Source of the DNA: Candidatus Caldarchaeum sp.
Lineage (GTDB): Archaea > Thermoproteota > Nitrososphaeria_A > Caldarchaeales > Caldarchaeaceae
Assembly: GCA_038831915.1 (NCBI GenBank)
Contig: JAWBKB010000011.1
Span: 8,696-50,810, forward strand
DNA length: 42,115 bases
Direction of reading: 5' to 3'
A program made the position numbers and the translations under genes. The notes under the pieces were generated by a model that saw only the letters and a program-made list of their open reading frames with translations, did not search any database and had not been told where the DNA came from. Shown in pieces: positions 10,875 through 23,673 of this stretch (positions are counted from its first letter, which is position 1; every line of letters begins with the position of its first letter).

Positions 10875-12164
10875 TTATAAATTTTCAGCCAAATTAATTT
10901 TCGCCTTTCTACGTGTTCTAACTTTTGCAACGACTCTGGCGGGCGCGACCTCTGAATTTTTTATGTTGATGGGCATAGCGTAAACCGTTACCTTCTTCCC
11001 CGCGATGCGTGACATGTCTCCCAGATTTTCGATTATCAAGACATCGTTTTGAAGAAGTGTTTTGTGAACTTGTTTTTCTCCGCTGCGTTCCGGGTTCGGC
11101 ATGTCGATGCCAAATATCTTAGTTTCTTTCTCTACCAGCCATTCGGCAAATTCCACGTCGACAACAGGATGTGCATAATATTTCGGCTGACCTAAGTATC
11201 TGTTCCAACCGGTGTAGACAAAGACAATCCAACGAGGGGGAAGGTAATGCCTGTCGAGCAGTTTTTTCGCCCATTCAAGAGTTATGACATCGTCAGACGA
11301 GGAGCATTCCATGTTTAAAACAATGCATTTACCGATGAACAAATCAGGCGGATATTCGTCTATTGTTTTCCCGTTCGGGAAAAGCAGGGACGGTGTGTCA
11401 AAATGCGTGAAAACTTTTGTGGGTTTGTTGTCTGATTCACGGATTTTAGAAAGGTTAACTTGGCTGAAATCTTCGGGAGCCGGTGGAATTGTCAAGTCGT
11501 AGTAGGAATTAGCCCTTAATTTGGAAATTTCTGGCATATCTGATTTTGAAATCTGTTCGATGTACGTCCGGAGTTGCTGAACGGTCCATTCCTGCGTGAC
11601 CAACTGCTTAAAAGTTTGACGTTGCAAAGCTGGGTCCCGTAATTTAAGTAGATACAATAGGTGGAGAAGCCCTACTTTCCTATCGGTAGGAAGATTCCTA
11701 TACTCTTCTATCACGTCATGGGGAAGTTTGAGTAGTTCAACCCGGTTGTACACGTATTTTGGGTTGATTCCCAAAAGTTTGGCCAGTTCGTCGTATGATT
11801 TCCCCGTTCTTTTAACCCAGAAATTGAAATATTCGGCTTCCTCTAGCGGGTCTCTATCCTTTCTCAGCATGTTCTCGATTGCACATTGAATGATGACTTC
11901 GTCGTCACCAAGTTTATCTACGATGCACGTTATTTCCTCTACGCCGGCAAGTTTGGCGGCTTCAAACCGTCTTCTACCCCAGACAAGCTCATAGAAACCA
12001 TCCTGCGAAGGTCTGACTTTTACGGGAACGTCGACATCGCTCCTCTGTTTGATGGATTTCGCCAGTGAAACAAGATCTCCCAAATCTCTACGGTCCGGAA
12101 GCCAGGGGATTGTTTTTATTTTCTTCACGGGGATTCTCTGAATTTTTGGAAAAAAATCAGCCAT
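10875..12164 (-). CDS. ParB-like CTPase/HTH protein fused to a C-terminal cyclase (kynurenine formamidase-like) domain
   Basis: N-terminal: LAKSIK..PVKVRP..YELVWGRRRFEAAKLAG, IENMLRKDRDPLEEA, HTH SYDELAKLLGINPKYVYNRVELLKL. C-terminal: THFDTP..GKTIDEYP..FIG, YTGW, FGIDMPNP, VHKTLL..DVLIIENL, APARVVA. Confidence 0.85.
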   Translation of the reverse strand: MADFFPKIQRIPVKKIKTIPWLPDRRDLGDLVSLAKSIKQRSDVDVPVKVRPSQDGFYELVWGRRRFEAAKLAGVEEITCIVDKLGDDEVIIQCAIENMLRKDRDPLEEAEYFNFWVKRTGKSYDELAKLLGINPKYVYNRVELLKLPHDVIEEYRNLPTDRKVGLLHLLYLLKLRDPALQRQTFKQLVTQEWTVQQLRTYIEQISKSDMPEISKLRANSYYDLTIPPAPEDFSQVNLSKIRESDNKPTKVFTHFDTPSLLFPNGKTIDEYPPDLFIGKCIVLNMECSSSDDVITLEWAKKLLDRHYLPPRWIVFVYTGWNRYLGQPKYYAHPVVDVEFAEWLVEKETKIFGIDMPNPERSGEKQVHKTLLQNDVLIIENLGDMSRIAGKKVTVYAMPINIKNSEVAPARVVAKVRTRRKAKINLAENL

Positions 12165-12316: not shown

Positions 12317-14152
12317 ATGGTTCAGCAAAACAGGTTTCCGTTCGCTTACGAGGTCGAAACGCCCAAAGGAGCCGAAGGATGGGAAAAGATGTATCCCTAT
12401 TACTATGTTTTCGACAAATCTCCTGGGCAGAGACGGGATTGGGAGTCGAGCGTGTTTTGGTTCCAGGACGGGATGCATCATGGTGAGCCGCTGTATCCGT
12501 TGGACGCCATACATCCGATGGCATGGCAGTGGGCCCTATCCTCATACAACTCAAGGACTTTTGTCGTGCCGCCTGCCTTGGGAATAGCTCACAGAGTTCT
12601 GAATGGCTATCTCTACATCACACCAGTGCCGGTCACCGACCCTAACGAAGTAGCAAAACGCGTGGAATATTTCAAGAAAAGAGCCGGCTACTACTATCAG
12701 AATTGGAACAAGATTTTCGAAGAATGGAAGCAGAATGCCGAGGAAATAATCAAAGAAATGGAGGCTCTCGAATTCAAAGATTTGCCGGAAATAGAGGACG
12801 AAGAAGTCGTCTTCAAGCATCTCGGATTGTCGCGAAGCAGCTTCACGCTATACGACAACTTCCATAAACTTGTGATGCTTCATTTCAGGCTTTGGCAGAA
12901 ACATTTCGAAATGCTGAACCTTGGTTACGCGGCGTACCTAACATTCTATCTATTCTGCAAGGAAAAATTCCCCGCAATAGCGGACCAGCACATCGCACGA
13001 ATGGTCGCAGGAATAGAAAGCATACTCTTTAGACCAGACCAGGAATGCCGGAGGCTTGCGAGACTCGCCGTGGACTTCAAACTGGAGTCGATATTTTTGA
13101 AGAGGTTGGGTTACAGCAAGACAGTTGAAGAGCTCGAGAAAAGCAGCAACGGAAGAAAATGGCTCGAAGAGCTCGAGAAATCGAAGTATCCTTGGTTCTA
13201 CTACGCCACGGGTCCCGGATTCTACCACACCGAACCTCGTTGGATTGACAACATGGATATCCCCTTCACCTTCATCACTGATTACATCGAGAAAATCCTG
13301 AAAAACGAGCCAATAGAGCTGCCCACTGAGAAACTTAGGAGAGAAAGAGAAGAACTCGCCGTTCAGTACAAATCGCTGCTCAAAGACCCCGCTGACGTTA
13401 GAACATTTGAGGAGAACCTACAGCTTTCGAGAACCGTTTTTCCCTATGTGGAAGACCACAACTTCTACATAGAGCATTGGGGACACACGATATGGTACAA
13501 GAAGGTCAGAGAAATAGCCAGGATACTGGTGAAGAACGGAATAATAAACCGGGAAGATGATATTTTCTACATCAACTGGCACGAGCTCAGCCAAATACTG
13601 TATGACCTTTGTGCGAACTGGGCAGTCGGCGTCAAACCAGTGGCGACATATGGATGGCCGGCCGAGATAAGCAGAAGACGGCAAATTATCGAAACGGTTA
13701 AGCAGAACAGGCCGCCGCCGGCTTTGGGCAAACCTCCGGAAGTGATAACTGAGCCGTTCACCATCATGCTTTGGGGAGTAACCAAAGAAAGAATTAACCA
13801 GTGGCTTTCAGGTGCTATGGCTGGAGCTGAGAAAAAGCTAGTTGGGCTGCCTGCTTCGCCTGGAGTCGCTGAAGGCCCTGCCAGGATAGTGTTGAACGCA
13901 GAGGACATCGTCAACGTAAAGGAAGGCGAAATTTTGGTTGCACCCATTACGGCACCAGCATGGAACCCCGTCTTTCTCAAGATTAAAGCCACTGTAACCG
14001 ACATCGGCGGAATAATGTCTCATACAGCCATCGTCTGCAGAGAATACGGGCTGCCGGCAGTTGTAGGCACAGGTTTCGCAACCAAGATGATCAAGGATGG
14101 ACAAAAACTGAGAGTCGACGGAACCAACGGAGTAGTGGAAATCATTGACTGA
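12317..14152 (+). CDS. Phenylphosphate synthase alpha-subunit-like protein (substrate-binding region plus phospho-His swivel domain; PpsA/CreH-like)
   Basis: GAEGWEKMYPYYY, FWFQDGMHHGEPLYPLD, LSSYNSRTFVVPP, RAGYYYQNW, HFEMLNLGYAAY, VEDHNFYIEHW match my recollection of Thauera PpsA. The PEP-mobile motif TDIGGIMSHTAIVCREYGLPAVVG places the His at residue 569 (codon 14021). No pyruvate-binding barrel. Confidence 0.85.
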   Translation: MVQQNRFPFAYEVETPKGAEGWEKMYPYYYVFDKSPGQRRDWESSVFWFQDGMHHGEPLYPLDAIHPMAWQWALSSYNSRTFVVPPALGIAHRVLNGYLYITPVPVTDPNEVAKRVEYFKKRAGYYYQNWNKIFEEWKQNAEEIIKEMEALEFKDLPEIEDEEVVFKHLGLSRSSFTLYDNFHKLVMLHFRLWQKHFEMLNLGYAAYLTFYLFCKEKFPAIADQHIARMVAGIESILFRPDQECRRLARLAVDFKLESIFLKRLGYSKTVEELEKSSNGRKWLEELEKSKYPWFYYATGPGFYHTEPRWIDNMDIPFTFITDYIEKILKNEPIELPTEKLRREREELAVQYKSLLKDPADVRTFEENLQLSRTVFPYVEDHNFYIEHWGHTIWYKKVREIARILVKNGIINREDDIFYINWHELSQILYDLCANWAVGVKPVATYGWPAEISRRRQIIETVKQNRPPPALGKPPEVITEPFTIMLWGVTKERINQWLSGAMAGAEKKLVGLPASPGVAEGPARIVLNAEDIVNVKEGEILVAPITAPAWNPVFLKIKATVTDIGGIMSHTAIVCREYGLPAVVGTGFATKMIKDGQKLRVDGTNGVVEIID

Positions 14153-15185
14153 CTTCTCATACATACTACCTGCCGAACGCTGCGACAAAAATGTTTTAAG
14201 ATTGGTCGGAGGAAAAGCCGCTTCGTTAGGCGAAATAGTAAAAGCAGGATGCCCTATACCTTCATTCTTAACAATCACGTCTGAAGCCTACCGGAGATTC
14301 ATCGAATACAACAAAATGCAACCTTTGATTGTGAGCTTGGAGAATGCAAGCACAGATGAAGAAATTGTAATGGTCTCAGCTAAGATAAGAAGACATATTC
14401 AAAACGGCAGTTATCCACAGAACCTCGAGCAAGAGCTCAGGATTGCTTACCGAAGATTTTGCAGTTCATGGGGTCCTCTGGCCGTTAGGTCGAGCGCAAC
14501 TTTGGAAGACGCACCGGGCGCCAGCTTCGCAGGCCAGTATGACTCGTATCTCGGCGTCAGAACAGAGGAAGATTTCCTCCACTACGTTAAAAAATGCTAC
14601 GCAAGCCTATACACCGACAGAGCGGCGTCCTACCGGCACAAGCTCGGCCTGCCGCAGGACAACGTCGCCATGGCCGTGGTTATTCAAAAACTCGTCAAAG
14701 CGAGGTCGGCCGGAGTTATGTTCACGCTTAACCCGCTCAACGGCGACCCCTCGGTCGCGGTAATTGAAAGCAGCTGGGGGCTGGGGGAGGCCGTCGTCAA
14801 GGGAGAAGTGATTCCAGACAAATACGTTGTGAACAAAATCACGAAGGAAATTGTCGAGTCCAAGCATTCACGCAACAAACCTGTGAAGTACGAGATGATG
14901 GATGACGGCTCCGTGAAACGCATCGCAAATTCAACCGATAACTCAAGCCTTAGCATCAACGAAGAAGAAGCTGTTAAGCTTGTCGAATATGGTTTGCGGC
15001 TGGAAAAATACTTTCACAGACCACAGGACATCGAATGGGTCGTGGACAAGGATTCAAACATATTTCTCGTCCAGAGCAGACCTGTTACAGTTCCTACAAC
15101 TGTCGACAGACCATCGAAACAGAGCAACATAGTAGATACGCTCGACCGAGTTGTTGCATCACTTTTAGCCGGTGTGAAAACATAA
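14145..15185 (+). CDS. Phenylphosphate synthase beta-subunit-like protein (stand-alone PEP-synthase ATP-grasp domain; PpsB/CreI-like)
   Basis: VGGKAASLGE, AVRSSATLED..ASFAGQYDSYL, MAVVIQKLV..AGVMFT, SWGLGEAVVKG, PQDIEW, VQSRP; TTG start overlaps the ppsA-like stop. Confidence 0.88.
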   Translation: MTDFSYILPAERCDKNVLRLVGGKAASLGEIVKAGCPIPSFLTITSEAYRRFIEYNKMQPLIVSLENASTDEEIVMVSAKIRRHIQNGSYPQNLEQELRIAYRRFCSSWGPLAVRSSATLEDAPGASFAGQYDSYLGVRTEEDFLHYVKKCYASLYTDRAASYRHKLGLPQDNVAMAVVIQKLVKARSAGVMFTLNPLNGDPSVAVIESSWGLGEAVVKGEVIPDKYVVNKITKEIVESKHSRNKPVKYEMMDDGSVKRIANSTDNSSLSINEEEAVKLVEYGLRLEKYFHRPQDIEWVVDKDSNIFLVQSRPVTVPTTVDRPSKQSNIVDTLDRVVASLLAGVKT

Positions 15186-16455: not shown

Positions 16456-18870
16456 TTATTTTGTGTGAACGATTATTGTTGAACCTTTAGCTGTAGCCGT
16501 TACTTCGTAAACTGTGTCGGCGGCTTCTATGAGTTCTCGGTCGTGTGAAACAACGATCACTTGTGGGATGATTCGTTTTCCTCCTGCGAAGTTTTTGAGA
16601 ACATTTACCAGTTCTCTTCGTCTTTCCGTGTCAAGGTGGATGGTTGGTTCGTCCATGATTATTGATTCGAGTTTTTCGCCTGCGAGAGAGGAGGCGATTG
16701 CCAGCCTGAGCAATATTGCGACGACGATTTTCTCCCCGCCGCTGAGGGTCTCGATTGATTGTTCTCCGTTGGGCCCGTACACAGTTACGTTGAAGTCTTC
16801 GTCGATGCGGATGTCGTCGAACCTCAGTTCAAAATGTTGGAGAAAGACGCGGGCGACTTGTTCCACCGTAACGCTGGCTTGTTTACGAATAATTTTCTGC
16901 AGCAGCCCGTCTTTATGGAATACTTCACGTATCCGCTCAAGGGAGTTGACGTATGTGCTTAGTTTGTCGTATTCCTGCCGCAGCTTCTCCAGTGTTTCCA
17001 TCTCTTTTTCCAAGTTTTTCACAGATTCTTCGATGGCGTTCACAGCAGCCAACAAAGCACCATACAGCCCTTCCAGTCTCTTCTCCTCGTCACGCAGTTT
17101 TTCATACAGCGCCTCGGCCTTGTCAAGTAAGCCCTGGTCGAAAAAGAGTTCTTTCTTACGGTTCTCCAGCAGTTGTTTCTCCTCAGTCATCTTCTGGATT
17201 TCGGTTGATAGTGATTCCGCTTGCTGAGACAAGTTTCTGACATAGGTTTTTGCCAGTGTGATGTCGCGTAGCCCATGTTTCTCCACCAAAGCCACCGCTC
17301 TGATGAATGTATCATGGTTTGGCTTCAGTGTTTCTAGGACGCGGTTATTTTCGCGGATTTTGTCCTGAATCGCGGTTCTTCTCTGCTCGAGCACTTGAAG
17401 CTCTCCGACCTGCGAAGACAGTTTCGCTATTTGAGCAGCTAATTCGTCTCTCCTTCTTTGGTAATTTTTGACATCGTCTGGTCTGATTTTCTCCAGCTCG
17501 TTCAAAGTGTTCATAAGTAGCTCAAGCCGTGCTTTCGTGGCTTGGATTTCCTGTTCAACTTTTTTCCTGCGCCGGTTAATCAATATCTGGGTGTAAACGG
17601 GCAGTATGTTGATTAGCAGTGGAACGGGGCTCTGCAGGAAGAAAGCCAAGATAATTGATGCGATGGGTATGCTGGTTAGCAGTGCAGCTGATAACGCCGT
17701 ATAGCGAGTGGTTTGGTGTGAAAGTTTCTCAACTGTCTGCTGCTGCCTCGTTATATCTGTTTGCAGCCGGCTTACGAGGGCCGACCACCTATCGGTTATG
17801 ATGTCCTCCGAGACGCTGACGTTAGTCCTACGCTGAAAATCTGAGAGAAACGCTTTGACCTGTTTGTCAACATACTCGGCCTCGACTTTCTTTCTTTCCA
17901 ATTCATCTGAAAGCGGTTTTTTCTTTTCTATCTGCTCCTCGACTGATTTTAACTCGTCATACAGCTTCTTGACCTCCGACTCGATGGAACGGTATTCCCG
18001 ATAGTCCGCTTGGCACGTATCGATGTCTTGAATCGCTTTTGTCAGCTCCGTGATTTTTTCGCTGACCAACTTGAGCTCGCTCTTCCGGCTCTGCAAATCT
18101 GCGGAAATTGTGATAATATTCCTGGTAAGTTCTTCGTCTATGCGTTTCTTTTCGCGGAGCATCTCCAGCTCACGTCTCTTCCCGGTAAGCTGTTCGGATA
18201 TTTCTCGCCTTTTCGATTCGATCTCGCTGAGCTCGTGTTTTTTTGTTTCGAGTTCTTGTTTTTTCTGCTGTAGCTGTGTTTTGATTTCGTCGGCTTTTCT
18301 GAGCTTGAATTCATAGTTGGTCAGCTCGTTCCGTAGCGTCGATAATGGGTCTTTCAAAGCTTCCCAGAGTTTTTCCAGCTCGTCTATTCCGAGAAGATGG
18401 CCGATGATTTTCTTTCTTTCGGCTGGCCGTTCTTCGATTAGCTGGGCCAGCTGACCCTGTCTTACGTAAATGGCGTTCATGAAAACCTTGCTGTCGACGC
18501 CGATTAGCTTAGCTATTTCTGGAATGATTGTTTTCTCTCCTGAGCCTGGCTTGACGAGCGGGTATCCGCTGCTTATGTCTCGTAGGTTGCCTATACTTGG
18601 CTTTCCCGGTGAAAGACTCCATTCCACTTCATAGTTTTTGCCTCGGACGGAGAAAACCACGGCAACTTTCGATTGTGGCTGGCCTCTCCGTATTAGGTTC
18701 GCGTCAACACCTCTTCCATGTTCGCGGAAAAGCGAATAGGTAACCGCGTCGAGTATCGATGTTTTCCCCGCACCATTCTGCCCAACGATGACCGTCACGC
18801 CGAGCGGAAAATCCACTGAAGCATCCTGGTAAGAGACGAAATTTCTCATGCTGACTTTTTGGATTATCAT
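16456..18870 (-). CDS. rad50: DNA double-strand break repair ATPase Rad50 (SMC family), without a zinc hook
   Basis: Walker A GQNGAGKTS, Q-loop YVRQGQ, long coiled coils, signature LSGGE, Walker B IIMDEPT, SHD; coupled to mre11. Confidence 0.92.
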   Translation of the reverse strand: MIIQKVSMRNFVSYQDASVDFPLGVTVIVGQNGAGKTSILDAVTYSLFREHGRGVDANLIRRGQPQSKVAVVFSVRGKNYEVEWSLSPGKPSIGNLRDISSGYPLVKPGSGEKTIIPEIAKLIGVDSKVFMNAIYVRQGQLAQLIEERPAERKKIIGHLLGIDELEKLWEALKDPLSTLRNELTNYEFKLRKADEIKTQLQQKKQELETKKHELSEIESKRREISEQLTGKRRELEMLREKKRIDEELTRNIITISADLQSRKSELKLVSEKITELTKAIQDIDTCQADYREYRSIESEVKKLYDELKSVEEQIEKKKPLSDELERKKVEAEYVDKQVKAFLSDFQRRTNVSVSEDIITDRWSALVSRLQTDITRQQQTVEKLSHQTTRYTALSAALLTSIPIASIILAFFLQSPVPLLINILPVYTQILINRRRKKVEQEIQATKARLELLMNTLNELEKIRPDDVKNYQRRRDELAAQIAKLSSQVGELQVLEQRRTAIQDKIRENNRVLETLKPNHDTFIRAVALVEKHGLRDITLAKTYVRNLSQQAESLSTEIQKMTEEKQLLENRKKELFFDQGLLDKAEALYEKLRDEEKRLEGLYGALLAAVNAIEESVKNLEKEMETLEKLRQEYDKLSTYVNSLERIREVFHKDGLLQKIIRKQASVTVEQVARVFLQHFELRFDDIRIDEDFNVTVYGPNGEQSIETLSGGEKIVVAILLRLAIASSLAGEKLESIIMDEPTIHLDTERRRELVNVLKNFAGGKRIIPQVIVVSHDRELIEAADTVYEVTATAKGSTIIVHTK

Positions 18871-20000
18871 TTCCTAGCTCTTTTCAGGATGTATTCTTTT
18901 AGTGCTTGTTCGCCTTCGTTGTGGAAGATTTTATAAATGGTGACGGTAAGTTCGGTCTCCTCTTTCGAAAGCTGTGCTTGGGATATTGATTGTTTGATGA
19001 TTGCTTCGATGTCGAATGCGGGTTGTCCACGGCCCAGCAGCTGCTCGAAAGATACAACAGTTTCGGCGACCGCTCTTCTGTACCTTATTTCGAGACATCC
19101 ATGGCTTCGCAGCAAGTCGATTACTTCCCGTAGCTTCTTCGCGTCAACATCGCTGTCCTTCACATTTAGATGAACTATTGGTTTCTTGCTCTGAGAGGAA
19201 ACCCATTCAAGTATTTCGGTCAGCGGCTGCGAAAGGTGAACTTCGTAGACGGCTTGAGGCCTTACATGTTTAAGGTCGATGGGGGTCGGCTCCAGCTCAG
19301 GGCTTGTAAGGTCAACAAGGTAAAACCCTTTACCATCTTTCGTCCAGACGGGAATTTCGTCGCGGCTCAGTATTTCAATCGAGCCAGGGTAGGCGGCGAC
19401 GCCGCCTGATTTTTTCATGACTTTTCTGATGTGTTCATGTCCCAAGGCGTAGTAGTCAAAGCCAGACGGAAGACTATCAACTGACAGGTCATCCGCCGAC
19501 CCACGCAGCGGCACGTGTGTTATCAAGATTTTCCGGCCTTCAAGCCCCGATGCTTTGCGGCTCATTTCTTCAAGCGTTTGGCGTGCTCTTTCCACTGCGA
19601 CCAGAGGCGGTTTGTCAAGCCCTGCCAAAACAGTTTTAACACCGTCTTGATCAAATTCAACTACTTGCCCGTTGACATGGGTTAGCAGCCAGTCTTTGAA
19701 GAAGGCTACTGGGTTCCATTCTCCGATGCGTCTTGGGATGTCGTGGTCGCCGAGAACACAGAAAATCCTCACCCCATGCGTCGAAAGCTTTTCAAAACAT
19801 TTCTTCGCGACGTAAAGAGCTCTTATCGGCGGTCTCGGCGAATGAAACAAATCTCCCGATATCACGACTGTTTTGGCATGTTCTTCGAGTATTTTCTCCA
19901 CCGTTTCTTCGAATGATTCGTAGATGTCCTGTTCCCGTTCAGCCAACCCGTACTGGCGGTAGCCGAGATGAATGTCAGCCAAATGTGCTACAAGGGTCAA
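18867..20000 (-). CDS. mre11: Mre11 nuclease
   Basis: HLADIHLG, SGDLFH, LGDHD, ITH, YYALGHEH, AYPGS; lies between herA and rad50. Confidence 0.92.
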   Translation of the reverse strand: MTLVAHLADIHLGYRQYGLAEREQDIYESFEETVEKILEEHAKTVVISGDLFHSPRPPIRALYVAKKCFEKLSTHGVRIFCVLGDHDIPRRIGEWNPVAFFKDWLLTHVNGQVVEFDQDGVKTVLAGLDKPPLVAVERARQTLEEMSRKASGLEGRKILITHVPLRGSADDLSVDSLPSGFDYYALGHEHIRKVMKKSGGVAAYPGSIEILSRDEIPVWTKDGKGFYLVDLTSPELEPTPIDLKHVRPQAVYEVHLSQPLTEILEWVSSQSKKPIVHLNVKDSDVDAKKLREVIDLLRSHGCLEIRYRRAVAETVVSFEQLLGRGQPAFDIEAIIKQSISQAQLSKEETELTVTIYKIFHNEGEQALKEYILKRARK

Positions 20001-21619
20001 GGCGGTTCACTTCTTTCTCTGAAAACAAGCCATTCGGTTTCGTGTTTCTCGCTTTCGGCGACTTCTTTCAGCGATTCGTCGAGTAGCTGTTCGACATCGA
20101 TGTCCGCTCCCCCTTCCCGGCTTTTCCGTTTCCGGACTTTGATGATGGCGGGTATGTTGACGACTTCGCCGACCACTACAGCTTCTCCCCTCGCTAAACT
20201 CGGCAAATCCTCGAGAAGCTCATGTCCAAGCCTTTCAGACGCTTCGACAACAGCTCTCTGGTCGACGGGGTTGGTTATACGCATGATTATCTGGCTGCTG
20301 CACTGGCTGAGAACGTCGGGATGGACTTTAGAAGGCCTCTGAGTGACAAGTGTCAAAAATATTCCGAATTTACGTCCCTCCGCCGCGATTTTCTTTATGA
20401 ATCCTCCTGAATAAGTGTCGCATAACGCCGGCGGCGGAATAAACCGATGAGCTTCCTCGATGAAGACGAAGACAGGATACTTGTATCCTTGCTCGGTCGG
20501 CAGCATTTTCAACGTGAAAATCTCTTTCAAAACAAAGTACGCGATGAGGTCTGATTCTCTGTCACTCAGCCCAGACAAATCGATGACCGAAAGCGTTTTC
20601 GGCTTCAGAAAATCCCTGACGTCAAAGCTTCTATCACCGAGAATAGTCAAATCTTGAAGACGTTCCATGTAGTTTAACGCTTTAGCCGCTGAATCTTTAA
20701 GCTGCCTCGAAGCGTCAGAGGTGTCAGATGAAAGGTTTCGCAGCTCTTCGATTAATTCTGTAAAAGAGAATTCTCCTTTGCCCTTTAATTCTTTGAAAAC
20801 TTTTACGACCGCTCTTCTAATGTTGACATAGGATTTCTCCACTCCCGTGATGTAAAAAAGTTCTTCGAGCTTGAGGTCGCGGATGCTGATGGAGAAAGGC
20901 CGGATATTTCTGATGTCTGGATAGCGAGCCTTGCTTCCAGCGGGCCTAAACACATAAACTCGCTTAGAAAGCTCATACGGCCAATCATCGGAAGGCACCG
21001 AAAAACGAACGTAGTCGGCGTGCGGGTCGAGAACTATAATGGTCGCTCCTTTTTCCAAAAGCTCCTCCATCAAAACTCCGGCCAAGTAACTTTTGCCCGC
21101 CCCCGTCTGCGCAATTATGGCGAGATGTCTTCTGAAACCAGACACCGATAGACCGATGTTCACGCCGGGCCTCGTCGTCAAACTTCCAACCCAAAGCCTC
21201 TTACCCTTCCCCGAGTAAATTTCACTTAGCAGACGGTCTGGAGCGAGGTAAACTTTCGTACCCGGCGGAATAGAGTAACGGACGCGTGTGTAGCTCGCCT
21301 GCTGAACCGTTTTCAAGTCGTCGACGTAGACGATGACCTGAGCGTTTCTCCAGTGTTTGCATTCTTCGACGAGTCTCTGGGTCAGACGTGTGAGAACCTC
21401 GTAGTCAACGTCTTTTCTGAGAAGCGAGCTGTATGAAGCCACTCCACGCACCTGAGCGACGACAAGCCCGCCTTCAAACGGTGCCACAATGTATTCCCAA
21501 CGCGGAACCCTGGAAGAAACACGTGGATGCACGCTGAACACAAACGATGTTGGACTGCTTTCGCCGACAACTATGCCGACTTCCTCCAAATTCCCCATCA
21601 TGTCATAGGGAGACGACAA
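19997..21619 (-). CDS. herA: HerA bipolar DNA helicase/translocase
   Basis: N-terminal HAS-barrel-like region, RHLAIIAQTGAGKS, LDPHADY, FIEEAHRF, EGRKFG, TQRPS. Confidence 0.93.
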   Translation of the reverse strand: MSSPYDMMGNLEEVGIVVGESSPTSFVFSVHPRVSSRVPRWEYIVAPFEGGLVVAQVRGVASYSSLLRKDVDYEVLTRLTQRLVEECKHWRNAQVIVYVDDLKTVQQASYTRVRYSIPPGTKVYLAPDRLLSEIYSGKGKRLWVGSLTTRPGVNIGLSVSGFRRHLAIIAQTGAGKSYLAGVLMEELLEKGATIIVLDPHADYVRFSVPSDDWPYELSKRVYVFRPAGSKARYPDIRNIRPFSISIRDLKLEELFYITGVEKSYVNIRRAVVKVFKELKGKGEFSFTELIEELRNLSSDTSDASRQLKDSAAKALNYMERLQDLTILGDRSFDVRDFLKPKTLSVIDLSGLSDRESDLIAYFVLKEIFTLKMLPTEQGYKYPVFVFIEEAHRFIPPPALCDTYSGGFIKKIAAEGRKFGIFLTLVTQRPSKVHPDVLSQCSSQIIMRITNPVDQRAVVEASERLGHELLEDLPSLARGEAVVVGEVVNIPAIIKVRKRKSREGGADIDVEQLLDESLKEVAESEKHETEWLVFRERSEPP

Positions 21620-21658
21620 GTTTCTGCCCTGCTCTGCTACGGCCTTGACTAAAAAGTT

Positions 21659-22972
21659 TCAGCCCGGCGGCTCGGGTATCTGTCTTCTCGAAAGCTCGAC
21701 AGGCCCAAGTGCTTTGTCAACGAATTCCATCAGAATCGGTGCATCAGTCTTTCGGAGGCGGGCTCTCCGGTCAGCTTCATATAGCCAAACGTTGTAGACT
21801 TCCTTGCTTCCATACATTTCCCGCAGAGCTGAAAGTAATTTAACGAACTTTTCTCCCGTGTTGAAGAGTTGCGGGACATAGATTTCGAAGAACTTTTCGT
21901 CGGAATCCAGCGTGAAAGCTGGCAGGTCGATTTTGAGGGGATAGTCGCGGCTGTCGAACCTCACATAAGAGGAAACCACTGCAGTAACGGCTTGAAGCCT
22001 GTTCAAAACTTCGTATACTTTCGGGGCCTTATCCACCGAGAGCCGAAGCTTATTTTCCGCGAACATTTCGGGATTCCGTGTTGCGAACAGGAAAAAATCT
22101 CGCAGCCGCGAGGAAGCGCCCAAAAGCAAAGGAGCGGTATAACCTTCGTCCACGAAGCAGTTTTTCAGCAACAGCAGGTCGGGTGTCCTAAAAATCGTTT
22201 CACTGATGATCTTGAACAAATTTTCCAGCTTTCCTGCGTATTTTGTTTTGAGTTTCTCTACTGTCCTGAGAGCCTGCCGCGGGTTTCTGAAAGCAGAATA
22301 GAGAATGTTTTCGATGGTCTCCAGGTCTCTAGGCTCGATGTATCCCAATTCCTTCAACCGCCGGACTTCCTCCGCATGTTGACGCGATATTATGAAATCT
22401 CGGAGCGAAGATGATGAACTGATTTTCGCCATCGAAACAACTTTCACCTGAAAACGTTTCGCTTCGTCAAGAAAATCAGCGAGTTCTTCATAGAAGCGGA
22501 GTAATAATTCACCGTAGTCGGGGGGAGAGTTTGTTGGCGTAATCGGCGGTGTTGATAACAGGCCGTAGAGAGAGCCGTCGAGCAGCAAAAACCCGTCGCC
22601 CGAAAGTTGTTTTAGGGTTTTTCTCGCGACTTTTAGTTCGAGAGATTTCATCAGCAAGCTGGCGTATTTGAAACTGGGTGGGTAGGCGACGACGCATGTG
22701 AAATCTCTTTCCTCTATTCCACAGCCATAAGCATATGCGGAAACAAAGATTATCGAGCCTCCGTTGGCGAGACGAAACTTCATCAACCCTCCATCCACCG
22801 CAGCCACTCGGTCAAATTTTTCGCCACCACCAAAATCCGAAGAAATCCACAAGTTTCGAGAATAATTAACCAGCTCGGTCAGGAAAGGGTTATCGCCGTC
22901 GTTAACGAGCCTTGCTAATTTTTCCCCATGTTTCCGCAGCCACGAATCAAGAAGGTCTGCGACAAAAGCCAT
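21659..22972 (-). CDS. nurA: NurA 5'-3' nuclease
   Basis: AAVDGG and LLDGSL acidic motifs, SMAKIS, C-terminal YEADRRAR; first gene of the nurA-herA-mre11-rad50 operon. Confidence 0.88.
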   Translation of the reverse strand: MAFVADLLDSWLRKHGEKLARLVNDGDNPFLTELVNYSRNLWISSDFGGGEKFDRVAAVDGGLMKFRLANGGSIIFVSAYAYGCGIEERDFTCVVAYPPSFKYASLLMKSLELKVARKTLKQLSGDGFLLLDGSLYGLLSTPPITPTNSPPDYGELLLRFYEELADFLDEAKRFQVKVVSMAKISSSSSLRDFIISRQHAEEVRRLKELGYIEPRDLETIENILYSAFRNPRQALRTVEKLKTKYAGKLENLFKIISETIFRTPDLLLLKNCFVDEGYTAPLLLGASSRLRDFFLFATRNPEMFAENKLRLSVDKAPKVYEVLNRLQAVTAVVSSYVRFDSRDYPLKIDLPAFTLDSDEKFFEIYVPQLFNTGEKFVKLLSALREMYGSKEVYNVWLYEADRRARLRKTDAPILMEFVDKALGPVELSRRQIPEPPG

Positions 22973-23013
22973 CCAAACACCGACAGCAGAAACCCATTAC
23001 CGCAGAATATGTT

Positions 23014-23673
23014 TTATCCGAAAGACCGTTCTCCAGCGTCCCCAAGCCCGGGAACGATGAAACCATGCTCGTTAAGCTCCTTGTCTATAGCGACCGTGAA
23101 AATCTCAACTCTGCTGTAGCGTTCACGGACCCGCGCTATCGCCTGCATCGTCGAAATAATCGTGGCTAAAATGATTCTTTTCGGTGTTCCACGTTTTTCG
23201 ATTTCCGCCAAAACTTTGAGGATTGTCGACCCTGTTGCGAGCATCGGGTCCGCGATGATCACGACGTCTGTATTTGCTATCGCTGGGATTTTTACATAGG
23301 TTACTTCGATGTCGAAGTCTAATCCACCTCTGTAGGTTTCATCCACTCGCCTCGCGCTGACGATGCCTTGTCTCGCATTTGGGAATACTTTGAGAAGGCC
23401 TTCGGTTAAAGGCATAGCCGCCCTCAACACCGTGACCAGCACCACGTTGTCGATGTCTGGAATCTCAATTCCTTCAGCGGGCTTGTTCAGCGGCGTTATC
23501 ACCGTGCGCGGAGAAGTTTCAAACGTGCGGACGATTTCAAACCCGAGAAGCCTGCCAAGCTTTACCAAACCTTTCCGAAACTCAATCTGGCCCGTGTTTT
23601 TGTCGCGGATTTTCGTCAAAACCATCTGCGCGTAGGGATGCTCCACTACGTGAACCCTATCATCCACACCCAC
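23014..23673 (-). CDS. upp: Uracil phosphoribosyltransferase
   Basis: LTKIRDKNT..EFR, VLRAAMP, ADPMLATGST, GFIVPGLGDAGERSFG. Likely start GTG 23673/23667 downstream of a CTTATATC TATA (ORF track start 23736). Confidence 0.95.
   Translation of the reverse strand: MGVDDRVHVVEHPYAQMVLTKIRDKNTGQIEFRKGLVKLGRLLGFEIVRTFETSPRTVITPLNKPAEGIEIPDIDNVVLVTVLRAAMPLTEGLLKVFPNARQGIVSARRVDETYRGGLDFDIEVTYVKIPAIANTDVVIIADPMLATGSTILKVLAEIEKRGTPKRIILATIISTMQAIARVRERYSRVEIFTVAIDKELNEHGFIVPGLGDAGERSFG

Follow-up and report, generated by a model that had tools for sequence, protein, structure and literature searches.

Locus and domain architecture

The window analysed here is a stretch of 42,115 nucleotides from contig JAWBKB010000011.1 of a Candidatus Caldarchaeum sp. 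assembly (GCA_038831915.1). A first-pass annotation, made from the letters alone, had placed a rad50 gene within a nurA-herA-mre11-rad50 operon, an assignment that Pfam matches for all four genes bear out:

21659..22972, minus strand: nurA, 437 aa (Pfam NurA, 5e-12)
19997..21619, minus strand: herA, 540 aa (Pfam DUF87/HerA central domain, 5.9e-39; NCBIfam helicase_HerA, 7.4e-68, under cut-off)
18867..20000, minus strand: mre11, 377 aa, overlapping rad50 by 4 bases (Pfam Metallophos, 4.7e-12; NCBIfam Mre11_Sulfo, 4.2e-60, under cut-off)
16456..18870, minus strand: rad50 (protein P0001), 804 aa, hook-less hydrophobic-apex type (single open frame; Pfam, PDB and Foldseek matches)

Pfam recognizes AAA_23 (5.7e-25), SMC_N (4.6e-24) and SbcC_Walker_B (1.1e-7) domains in P0001, the best PDB match by sequence is Rad50 3aux (2.2e-59), and Foldseek searches with the AF2 model of the protein retrieve Rad50 structures 7zr1 (1.2e-27) and 3auy, the latter with a TM-score of 0.84–0.87 when normalised by target length. 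The top NCBIfam match, Rad50_Sulf, stands at 298 bits, far under its cut-off of 1000, which a hook-bearing sister protein (P0160, 354 bits) likewise does not reach; the NCBIfam sbcc model reaches 108.8 bits, its cut-off being 478.5. In the AF2 model (mean pLDDT 83), helices run from residue 173 to residue 650 and reverse direction at 412–421, and the same long antiparallel coiled coil joins the head halves in the model of a second hydrophobic-apex protein, P0007. The 804-residue chain divides as follows:

18346..18870, minus strand: ABC ATPase head, N-terminal half, residues 1–175 (sequence; AF2 strands and helices, pLDDT 83–95)
17704..18345, minus strand: outgoing coiled-coil arm, residues 176–389 (AF2 helices 173–349 and 358–411)
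17638..17703, minus strand: apex helix 1, residues 390–411, YTALSAALLTSIPIASIILAFF (AF2 helix continues to 411)
17608..17637, minus strand: apex turn region, residues 412–421, LQSPVPLLIN (non-helical in AF2, pLDDT <50 at 410–421)
17575..17607, minus strand: apex helix 2, uncharged part, residues 422–432, ILPVYTQILIN (AF2 helix 422–460)
17560..17574, minus strand: RRRKK basic cluster adjoining the hairpin, residues 433–437 (sequence)
16939..17559, minus strand: returning coiled-coil arm, residues 438–644 (AF2 helices 422–460, 464–531, 537–575 and 579–650)
16456..16938, minus strand: ABC ATPase head, C-terminal half, residues 645–804 plus stop (sequence)

The N-terminal head half carries Walker A (GQNGAGKT, 30–37) and the Q-loop glutamine (Q138), and the C-terminal half the signature (LSGGE, 709–713), Walker B/D-loop (IIMDEPT, 737–743) and H-loop histidine (H776); all five are invariant in the alignment of hydrophobic-apex proteins. 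By its ATPase motifs, coiled coil, closest relatives and neighbouring genes, the window protein is an archaeal Rad50 orthologue.

Among 19 loci encoding a hydrophobic-apex Rad50, the four operon genes are complete in 12, and herA-mre11-rad50 continue until the contig end in 2 more. The genome was checked for a second, hook-bearing rad50, as had been suggested, and none was found; likewise, a hook-bearing query retrieved no further full-length Rad50 from any of five genomes that carry the variant. With the operon kept, no other Rad50 and invariant ATPase motifs, the variant is predicted to have kept its function as a repair protein. No conserved gene for a membrane protein or partner adjoins the operon across the loci compared. 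A possible link to a Ced-type DNA importer gained no support from a CedD family search of the same genome, where every match fell under the cut-off and corresponded to the two herA copies or to two other HerA-like ORFs.

A hydrophobic hairpin in place of the zinc hook

The first-pass annotation had reported a Rad50 with no CxxC and one cysteine (DTCQ), together with 43 uncharged residues followed by RRRKK. The sole cysteine is residue 286 of the 804-aa translation, and the uncharged segment occupies residues 390–432, exactly 17575–17703 of the window. This is the longest run free of D, E, K and R in P0001, the runner-up being 15 residues, and it also contains the maximum 19-residue Kyte-Doolittle mean (2.17, at residues 393–394). 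The Pfam zinc-hook family PF04423 matches neither P0001 nor P0007, as against 31.3 bits (cut-off 24.3) for sister protein P0160.

The segment sits where the hook does. The centre of the segment falls at 0.51 of the protein length and the CPxC of hook-bearing relatives at 0.49–0.52, while hydrophobic-apex proteins measure 804–831 aa against 800–807 aa in the sister clade, so length was kept despite the swap. The further claim that a hydrophobic hairpin sits at the hook position agrees with the helix-turn-helix of the AF2 model and with a MAFFT alignment in which the QSPVP turn at the centre of the P0001 segment lines up with the CPLC motif of relatives that have a hook. A word-indexed search with residues 330–500 alone yielded 1,223 candidates and scored none, so the apex has no sequence relatives that such a search can find; an ESM Atlas look-alike search with residues 383–442 gave feature scores of at most 0.82 and structure matches to generic helix hairpins, all under the tool's bar. 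We conclude that, at the tip of the coiled coil, a hydrophobic helix-turn-helix has taken the place of the CxxC zinc hook together with some 40 adjoining residues.

A conserved variant among close relatives

Relatives separate sharply by identity: all those with at least 35% identity have an uncharged apex of 35–45 residues, and all full-length relatives below 35% have CPxC. Among the best 150 representatives out of 1.84 billion, 142 carry CPxC and 6 the hydrophobic apex (the four closest full-length matches and two fragments), with two further fragments showing neither. A separate set of 25 proteins held 6 hydrophobic-apex and 19 CPxC members; 76 genome loci comprised 5 and 67, respectively, plus 3 truncated and 1 without such an ORF; and 69 metagenome loci comprised 14 and 42, plus 13 truncated. 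In total, 21 distinct apex versions were gathered across assemblies, each with 35–45 residues devoid of D, E, K and R. Relatives are labelled Caldarchaeales in their records, and the hydrophobic apex is confined to a few archaea from hot springs that form a small group.

The same genome holds a second copy of the nurA-herA-mre11-rad50 operon, also with a hydrophobic apex. Between the two Rad50 copies the apex is 67% identical, against 44% for the outgoing and 45% for the returning arm; correspondingly, dN is 0.25 for the apex, 0.45–0.46 for the arms and 0.04–0.07 for the head. Conservation of this kind, over 21 distinct sequences and at 67% apex identity between copies, excludes a chance origin of the segment.

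A frameshift or misassembly concealing a CxxC had been named as what would overturn the first-pass reading. Neither was seen: the other two frames over 17400–17900 are stop-rich and lack CxxC, and contigs from two further public sequencing runs span the whole segment with no indels (run X6 record 5, window 17522–17962, no differences; run X8 record 18, window 17288–17738, one difference). Two short contigs of metatranscriptome run X13 are identical to parts of rad50 and, DNA carry-over being possible, are a hint only of its transcription. The intact 804-aa frame with every ATPase motif, the closed alternative frames, the indel-free independent contigs, the recurrence of the apex in 21 variants from many assemblies, the low head dN and, as a hint, the X13 contigs all speak against an artefact and against a gene decaying into a pseudogene, with an apex that has ceased to matter. 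Decay could draw on one same-genus genome (G003) with a broken copy in which mre11 and rad50 are split, and on 5 of 12 other same-genus genomes, two of them 97–99% complete, in which no Rad50 came up at E ≤ 1e-10. We consider an artefact or decay extremely improbable: the hydrophobic apex is a real, conserved Rad50 variant.

Descent from hook-bearing Rad50

In a tree built from the heads only, with the type B Rad50 described below as outgroup, eight hydrophobic-apex proteins group together (SH-aLRT 99). CPLC Rad50 proteins from the same order make up the sister clade (joint SH-aLRT 100), and both clades are nested within hook-bearing archaeal Rad50. A tree constrained to unite all nine close members has a log-likelihood 6.2 higher and is not rejected (p-AU 0.62). 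The hydrophobic-apex Rad50 thus descends from hook-bearing Rad50. A divergent hairpin protein from another family, L028, groups in the unconstrained tree with CPVC Rad50 from its own family, its branch being long and flagged with a warning, and forcing it in with the others (all ten hairpin proteins united) costs 9.65 log-likelihood units (p-AU 0.33); it may represent a second, independent exchange of hook for hairpin. With P0009 as another candidate, the hairpin may have one, two or three origins, and its patchy distribution over four families might reflect gene transfer.

Where the hairpin is likely to reside

The first-pass annotation had left two readings, a membrane tether and a metal-free hydrophobic dimerisation tip, and the evidence leans towards the membrane. 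Over the 21 versions the apex consists of 22% L, 17.5% I, 11.5% A, 11% S, 7.5% T and 7% V, with a Pro-, Gly- and Ser-rich centre. Its 12-residue flanks are positive in net charge on the N side in all 21 and on the C side in 19, the other 2 being zero, and six-residue flanks of at least +2 occur on each side in 8 of 9 clade members compared with 10% of 3,219 coiled-coil windows. Apex helices have a mean hydrophobicity of 0.36–0.87 and a hydrophobic moment of 0.04–0.31 (0.61 and 0.13 for helix 1 of P0001), whereas the arms lie at about −0.3 and 0.3; high hydrophobicity with a low moment means that a polar face is missing from the apex helices. Within the clade alignment the apex sequence varies while its hydrophobic character stays constant. 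As a backdrop, 116 of 1,313 crude ORFs in the same genome contain an uncharged run of at least 36 residues with a mean Kyte-Doolittle value of at least 1, and 104 of these have at least three strongly hydrophobic 19-mers and so resemble polytopic membrane proteins.

The two arms of the hairpin are unequal in the window protein. AF2 predicts a helix at 358–411, a loop at 412–421 and a helix at 422–460 in P0001; in P0007 one helix runs to 411 and another starts at 416 after a 4-residue turn (412–415), giving 19 + 4 + 22 uncharged residues. Confidence is lowest at the tip in both models (pLDDT <50 at 410–421 in P0001, 56–75 in P0007), AF2 having no membrane in its model. On an approximate insertion scale applied without position terms, helix 1 of P0001 sums to about 0 kcal/mol, making it the better candidate for a membrane span, and the second arm, which contains two prolines plus N, Q, T and Y, reaches no better than +6.9 kcal/mol in any 17-mer; on the same scale, the second arm is similarly weak in the closest kin (P0155, P0156 and P0005), and both arms are near or below 0 kcal/mol in P0007, P0158, P0159, P0068 and L028. 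The first-pass view of a transmembrane-like hairpin fits helix 1, with the qualification that helix 2 of the window protein is only marginally hydrophobic. Also against insertion, an internal hairpin following 389 cytoplasmic residues requires a targeting route, and none is evident; the lack of a conserved membrane-protein gene beside the operon points the same way.

These features bear on what the tip might do in solution. The hairpins of two or more Rad50 molecules could assemble into a bundle of helices or a core resembling a micelle, which would dimerise the complex without zinc and without a membrane, in keeping with the known job of the hook, joining tip to tip (as given in the accessible part of PMC7752040). 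The slower evolution of the apex relative to the arms would suit a packing interface, as would the barely hydrophobic helix 2 of the window protein, and the central domain of Bacillus subtilis SbcE is hydrophobic and insoluble with membrane binding unreported in the available portion of PMC2811018. Such a tip would nevertheless have to accommodate zero charged residues over 35–45 positions in 21 variants, and the low hydrophobic moment leaves no water-facing polar side, so that even a four-helix bundle would present a wholly apolar surface. Lipid-facing helices, rather than specific protein interfaces, typically show free drift in sequence at constant hydrophobicity, and basic clusters at both apex ends likewise argue against a soluble tip, which we judge unlikely.

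Alternatively, the hairpin might wedge into one leaflet as a peripheral or re-entrant anchor, or dock into a hydrophobic groove on a membrane protein, in neither case crossing the bilayer. Other members of the clade, whose arms are both full-length (19 and 22 residues) and flank a 4-residue turn, do not fit this, nor do the insertion sums of about 0 or lower for both arms in P0007, P0158, P0159, P0068 and L028, and docking finds no conserved partner gene next to the operon. It is the window's own subclade that gives the idea its footing, through uneven arms (22 residues, a Pro-rich stretch, then about 11–17 residues) and central prolines (QSPVP, QNPAP). We regard a non-spanning anchor or docking site as distinctly improbable, and prefer anchoring of the apex hairpin in the membrane, which sequence features and structure models together make fairly probable.

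Proposed mechanism

As a whole, the account we favour, with moderate confidence, is a hairpin in the membrane, tips joined there and repair at the membrane-nucleoid interface. The hairpin would be inserted in the cytoplasmic membrane with its N and C flanks both cytoplasmic, and the Mre11-Rad50 head would hang below the membrane on about 210 residues of coiled coil. Lateral association of two hairpins within the membrane would substitute for the hook, joining the coiled-coil tips of Mre11(2)-Rad50(2), and HerA-NurA-linked processing of DNA ends for recombination repair would continue, restricted to the membrane-nucleoid interface. Insertion, hairpin-hairpin association and the biological consequence are all steps that we infer.

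A bolder version, which we put forward as rather unlikely, would make Mre11-Rad50-HerA-NurA a membrane-resident DNA-end machine, its tips joined in lipid without zinc, that works where DNA contacts the envelope. Possible roles would include DNA entry or exit, destruction of incoming linear viral DNA, or tethering of broken chromosome ends to the membrane. The idea of DNA traffic arises because HerA-NurA was proposed to feed archaeal DNA-transfer pili (Beltran et al. 2023; accessible part of PMC9905601).

Significance

To our knowledge, the zinc hook is held to define Rad50 and to be essential to it in every domain of life. It is still debated to what extent its role is simply to hold two coiled-coil tips together. 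The variant amounts to a natural swap experiment, in which the repair operon is kept, no other Rad50 is present and the hook has been replaced by a lipid-like hairpin held under selection. Were the hairpin in the membrane, the protein would be the first integral-membrane Rad50, to the extent that literature and database searches can tell, and would couple double-strand-break processing directly and physically to the archaeal cell envelope; were it not, it would show how tips can be joined without metal. In both cases the function of the hook can be probed simply with this protein, for example through exchange of hook and hairpin apices. A search of the main texts of open-access papers found no archaeal Rad50 with a transmembrane or hydrophobic apex, and the one in hand is apparently undescribed so far; in PMC5654768, Rad50 appears only as a Sulfolobus test substrate.

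Comparison with known systems

Canonical archaeal Rad50 (Pyrococcus furiosus, Methanocaldococcus jannaschii, Sulfolobus) shares with the window protein the bipartite ABC ATPase head, arms of about 210 residues, the overlapping upstream mre11 and the nurA-herA-mre11-rad50 operon; it also supplies the best PDB matches in sequence and fold, and the tree nests the window protein among its members. Unlike these, the window protein lacks CxxC and PF04423 and has a 43-residue uncharged hairpin with basic flanks, and for this reason it is predicted to reside in the membrane and not to float free in the cytoplasm.

Closer still are the CPLC-hook Rad50 proteins of the same order (P0160, P0010–P0013 and L011–L013), the sister group, which have 800–807 aa, 30–34% identity and the same apex position; they differ in keeping CPLC and a PF04423 match and in apex flanks of charged coiled coil. 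A third apex type within the order, type B (Rad50-like ATPases L017, L019 and L021–L027; 730–790 aa), lacks CxxC like the window protein and has a herA-mre11-rad50 context at L017, L019, L022 and L024. Unlike the window protein, type B has no hydrophobic segment, its apex resembling a short polar loop free of cysteine, and its heads are just 24–36% identical to the window Rad50. With hook, hairpin and polar Cys-free apices in one order, the Rad50 apex is far more changeable than textbooks suggest.

The layout proposed here, taken purely as an analogy and with no homology claimed, resembles that of mitofusin, atlastin and bacterial dynamin-like protein, in which an NTPase head is followed by a long helical stalk and a distal hydrophobic hairpin or paddle with cytoplasmic flanks. 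Those proteins are GTPases of unrelated fold that remodel membranes.

The bacterial precedent invoked in the first-pass annotation, that of SbcC-like/YhaN proteins, proved apt: in the accessible part of PMC2811018, YhaN (SbcE) of Bacillus subtilis is an SMC/SbcC-like ATPase, paired with the nuclease SbcF, that like the window protein has no CxxC, with a hydrophobic central domain, insolubility when overproduced and a polar location in competent cells. The first half of that domain is the hydrophobic one and contains a conserved proline, and the same portion of the paper reports SbcE as insoluble and polar, not as membrane-inserted. Tree and operon alike mark the hydrophobic-apex proteins as ordinary Rad50 orthologues, SbcE being compared here by description alone; SbcE forms a bacterial family highly diverged from SbcC. 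What the window-type apex conserves is hydrophobic character rather than sequence, whereas SbcE, as the available part of PMC2811018 describes it, has a conserved central domain of its own.

A hydrophobic hairpin at the apex of Rad50

The 804-aa protein studied here, encoded in the window within the classic four-gene nurA–herA–mre11–rad50 operon of thermophilic archaea, is a Rad50: its head motifs, its architecture and its partner genes all say so, as do its closest matches in sequence and fold and its place in the tree.

Operon genes and apex segment in the window
16456–18870, minus strand: rad50, a single open frame of 804 aa
17575–17703, minus strand: apex segment, Rad50 residues 390–432, a 43-residue run free of D, E, K and R
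18867–20000, same strand as rad50, upstream: mre11 (Pfam Metallophos)
19997–21619, same strand as rad50, upstream: herA (Pfam DUF87)
21659–22972, same strand as rad50, upstream: nurA

A Pfam scan matched the protein to Rad50/SMC head families (AAA_23, 5.7e-25; SMC_N, 4.6e-24; SbcC_Walker_B, 1.1e-7) and returned no match to the Rad50 zinc-hook family PF04423, while a scan of the entire protein sequence found no CxxC. The first-pass annotation had reported a single cysteine (DTCQ), which proved to be residue 286, and a charge-free, CxxC-less apex followed by RRRKK, which the sequence bears out: the basic run occupies residues 433–437, directly after the apex segment, the second-longest D/E/K/R-free run is 15 residues and the top 19-residue Kyte–Doolittle mean (2.17) falls within the segment. 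The two remaining frames over 17400–17900 contain many stops and zero CxxC, and contigs from two other public sequencing runs (X6, 17522–17962, 0 differences; X8, 17288–17738, 1 difference) span the whole segment without indels. The frameshift or misassembly that might have hidden a CxxC is thereby ruled out, and we regard an artefact or a decaying gene as a highly improbable account of the hairpin.

Neighbouring genes are of the housekeeping kind, including uracil phosphoribosyltransferase, PAC2, ABC transporter parts and an alpha/beta hydrolase, without the look of a mobile element. Further along lie an unusual fusion of ParB N-terminal, ParB HTH and ‘putative cyclase’ (PF04199) domains in a 429-aa open reading frame (ORF; 10875–12164, minus strand) and split dikinase-like parts in an unusual order (12317–15185), where a 611-aa ORF ends in a PEP-utilising mobile domain (12317–14152, plus strand) and the PPDK_N ATP-binding domain is in a 346-aa ORF of its own that comes next (14145–15185, plus strand). 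Runs containing the rad50 gene are labelled as hot-spring metagenomes. Two contigs of metatranscriptome run X13 are identical to parts of rad50 (window 16750–16999 and 18006–18209), a hint of transcription, with DNA carry-over possible.

Replacement of the hook among relatives

Relatives with a hydrophobic apex, which spans 35–45 uncharged residues and has no CPxC, were found in every search.

Apex types of Rad50 relatives
Best 150 of 22009 matches, 1.84 billion representatives: hydrophobic apex 6, CPxC hook 142, neither 2 (fragments)
Word-indexed protein search, n = 25: hydrophobic apex 6, CPxC hook 19, neither 0
Species-representative genome contigs, 76 loci: hydrophobic apex 5, CPxC 67, truncated 3, no Rad50-like ORF 1
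Metagenome contigs, 69 loci: hydrophobic apex 14, CPxC hook 42, truncated fragments 13

Those among the best 150 of 22009 matches are the four closest full-length proteins (36–42% identity) and two fragments, and identity to the window Rad50 separates the two types without overlap (hairpin at ≥35%, hook at ≤34%). The relatives are labelled Candidatus Caldarchaeum, Caldarchaeales and Aigarchaeota, with two MAGs labelled Sulfolobales and Desulfurococcaceae; distinct apex sequences number 21 in all. The proposed hook loss could be mapped by MAFFT alignment with related Rad50 proteins, in which the CPLC hook of the sister group lines up with the hairpin's central turn. Total lengths also match (800–807 aa in the sister proteins versus 804–831 aa). 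The hairpin has thus replaced the hook in place, rather than having been inserted.

A quick IQ-TREE analysis of the heads only (333 columns, 67 rows, apex columns excluded) recovered eight hydrophobic-apex proteins as one clade (SH-aLRT 99), sister to the CPLC-hook Rad50 of the same order (joint clade 100), both nested within hook-bearing Rad50. The ninth, P0009, was placed in the CPLC sister group on the free tree; constraining all nine together improved the likelihood by 6.2 units (p-AU 0.62), and a single origin is the simplest reading. Another family contributes a highly divergent Mre11-linked Rad50-like protein (L028, also recovered as L137; 802 aa, 41-residue uncharged apex), which sits on a long branch next to the CPVC Rad50 of its own family in the same tree. 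Forcing it in with the nine lowered the likelihood by 9.65 units and was not rejected (p-AU 0.33); L028 may represent an independent hook-to-hairpin swap.

The genome of the window (G000; 1.59 Mb, 34 contigs, 95.6% complete, 0.49% contamination) carries a second complete nurA–herA–mre11–rad50 operon on the 9.7-kb contig C29 (L113, 1–9747), with 77% DNA identity to window 16502–23264. Homology stops within a fragment of upp, a neighbour of the operon in the window, which is fused to an unrelated reading frame; the copy may have arisen by segmental duplication, been acquired from a relative or come from a relative binned with this genome. Identity between the two Rad50 copies is 65% over the full length, 93% and 88% in the heads, 44% and 45% in the arms and 67% in the apex, with dN of 0.25 at the apex, 0.45–0.46 in the arms and 0.04–0.07 in the heads, dS being saturated. 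From its lower dN and higher identity, the apex is more constrained than the flanking coiled coil.

Patchy distribution and operon retention

Of 76 species-representative genomes in the order, five, spread over three families, were found to have the close hairpin form: that of the window (two copies), G011, G003 (broken), G049 and G059. A fourth family with a hydrophobic apex is represented by L028 of G028. Distribution is patchy, since only 2 of 12 other genomes of the window’s genus have the close form and 5 of the 12, two of them 97–99% complete, gave no Rad50 match at E ≤ 1e-10. A possible second, hook-bearing rad50 was sought with the CPLC-hook protein P0160 in G000, G011, G049, G059 and G028 (completeness 81–96%); no second full-length Rad50 was found, the query otherwise recovering only an SMC and a roughly 600-aa ATPase related to SMC. 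In G000 an ATPase of this kind is a 618-aa ORF on contig C16 (L003), and many relatives have similar ORFs of 582–612 aa; NCBIfam includes a model named ‘archaea-specific SMC-related protein’.

The four-gene operon is retained with the hairpin Rad50: of 19 hydrophobic-apex loci, 12 have nurA, herA, mre11 and rad50, 2 have herA–mre11–rad50 as far as the contig end, 3 have mre11–rad50 alone (one broken) and 2 are short contigs with only rad50. The G003 locus (L010/L040, same genus), which shares an adjoining PAC2 gene with the window, has mre11 in two parts (198 + 184 aa), a hydrophobic-apex rad50 in three with 6 TGA within the match, and neither nurA nor herA; either the copy is decaying or its assembly is rich in errors.

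Nine genomes of the order (G032, G023, G010, G020, G004, G026, G002, G007 and G031; loci L017, L019 and L021–L027) encode a third kind of Rad50, 730–790 aa long, which lacks both a hydrophobic apex and any CxxC and has a tip resembling a short polar loop; herA–mre11–rad50 context is seen at L017, L019, L022 and L024. Since this kind also lacks a CxxC, the hook has been lost at least twice in the order.

Physical character and proposed placement of the hairpin

Across the 21 variants the apex is composed of L (22%), I (17.5%), A (11.5%), S (11%), T (7.5%), V (7%), G (5%), P (5%) and F (5%), its centre rich in Pro, Gly and Ser. Net charge over 12 residues is positive in all 21 N flanks and in 19 of the C flanks (zero in 2). 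Six-residue flanks reach at least +2 on each side in 8 of 9 full-length members, against 10% of 3219 windows from the coiled-coil arms of the same proteins. The apex helices are uniformly apolar (mean hydrophobicity 0.36–0.87, hydrophobic moment 0.04–0.31; arms about −0.3 and 0.3; Eisenberg scale). Insertion energies, as simple sums on the Hessa 2005 scale (no position terms), were about 0 kcal/mol for helix 1 of the window Rad50 and +6.9 kcal/mol for its second arm; both arms were near or below zero in L028 and in the relatives P0007, P0158, P0159 and P0068. AlphaFold2 modelled P0007 (mean pLDDT 85) as a textbook hairpin of 19 + 4 + 22 uncharged residues (helix to 411, turn 412–415, helix from 416), and the window Rad50 (mean pLDDT 83) with an outgoing coiled coil continuous with helix 1 to residue 411, an ill-defined loop at 412–421 (pLDDT below 50 at 410–421) and a returning helix from 422. 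Long apolar charge-free runs occur in 116 of 1313 crude G000 ORFs, 104 of which have at least three strongly hydrophobic 19-mers; the remaining 12 include both Rad50 copies.

We favour, with some reserve, a hairpin embedded in the cytoplasmic membrane. Counted against this placement are the weak second arm in the window’s subclade, the low AlphaFold2 confidence at the tip, the lack of any obvious way for an internal hairpin to be inserted and the lack of a conserved membrane partner gene. A soluble, self-associating tip is a distinctly less probable alternative, and a peripheral anchor or partner-docking site is less probable still. Were the hairpin in the membrane, both coiled-coil arms would exit on the cytoplasmic side, with the head and Mre11 hanging about 210 coiled-coil residues away. 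The accepted role of the zinc hook is to join two Rad50 tips within one complex, which sideways packing of two hairpins in the same membrane might take over. Because carriers have no other Rad50 and herA and nurA are kept, the machine would most likely still carry out DNA-end resection in recombination, with the membrane–nucleoid interface as its site.

Comparison with known systems

In a small clade of hot-spring archaea, Rad50 thus exists as a genuine and conserved variant kept under selection, in which a membrane-type hairpin occupies the exact position expected of the zinc hook. A full-text search of the main texts of open-access papers found no archaeal Rad50 described as having an apex that is transmembrane or hydrophobic. 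Beltran et al. 2023 note that rad50 and herA-like genes adjoin archaeal DNA-transfer pilus genes, and propose that HerA–NurA produces the transferred single strand (PMC9905601); given this link, a membrane-resident Mre11–Rad50 would be an attractive idea. A CedD family search of the window’s genome gave nothing above cut-off.

The nearest described precedent, judged by its published description, is Bacillus subtilis SbcE (YhaN), which has no CxxC and whose central domain has a hydrophobic first half and a conserved proline. Overproduced SbcE is reported to be insoluble, and in competent cells the protein accumulates at the poles; it is not there termed a membrane protein (PMC2811018). Set against canonical Rad50, the window protein differs in one defining feature, having no CxxC hook; such a Rad50 would surprise Rad50 and SMC-protein specialists and offers a direct handle on the purpose of the zinc hook.
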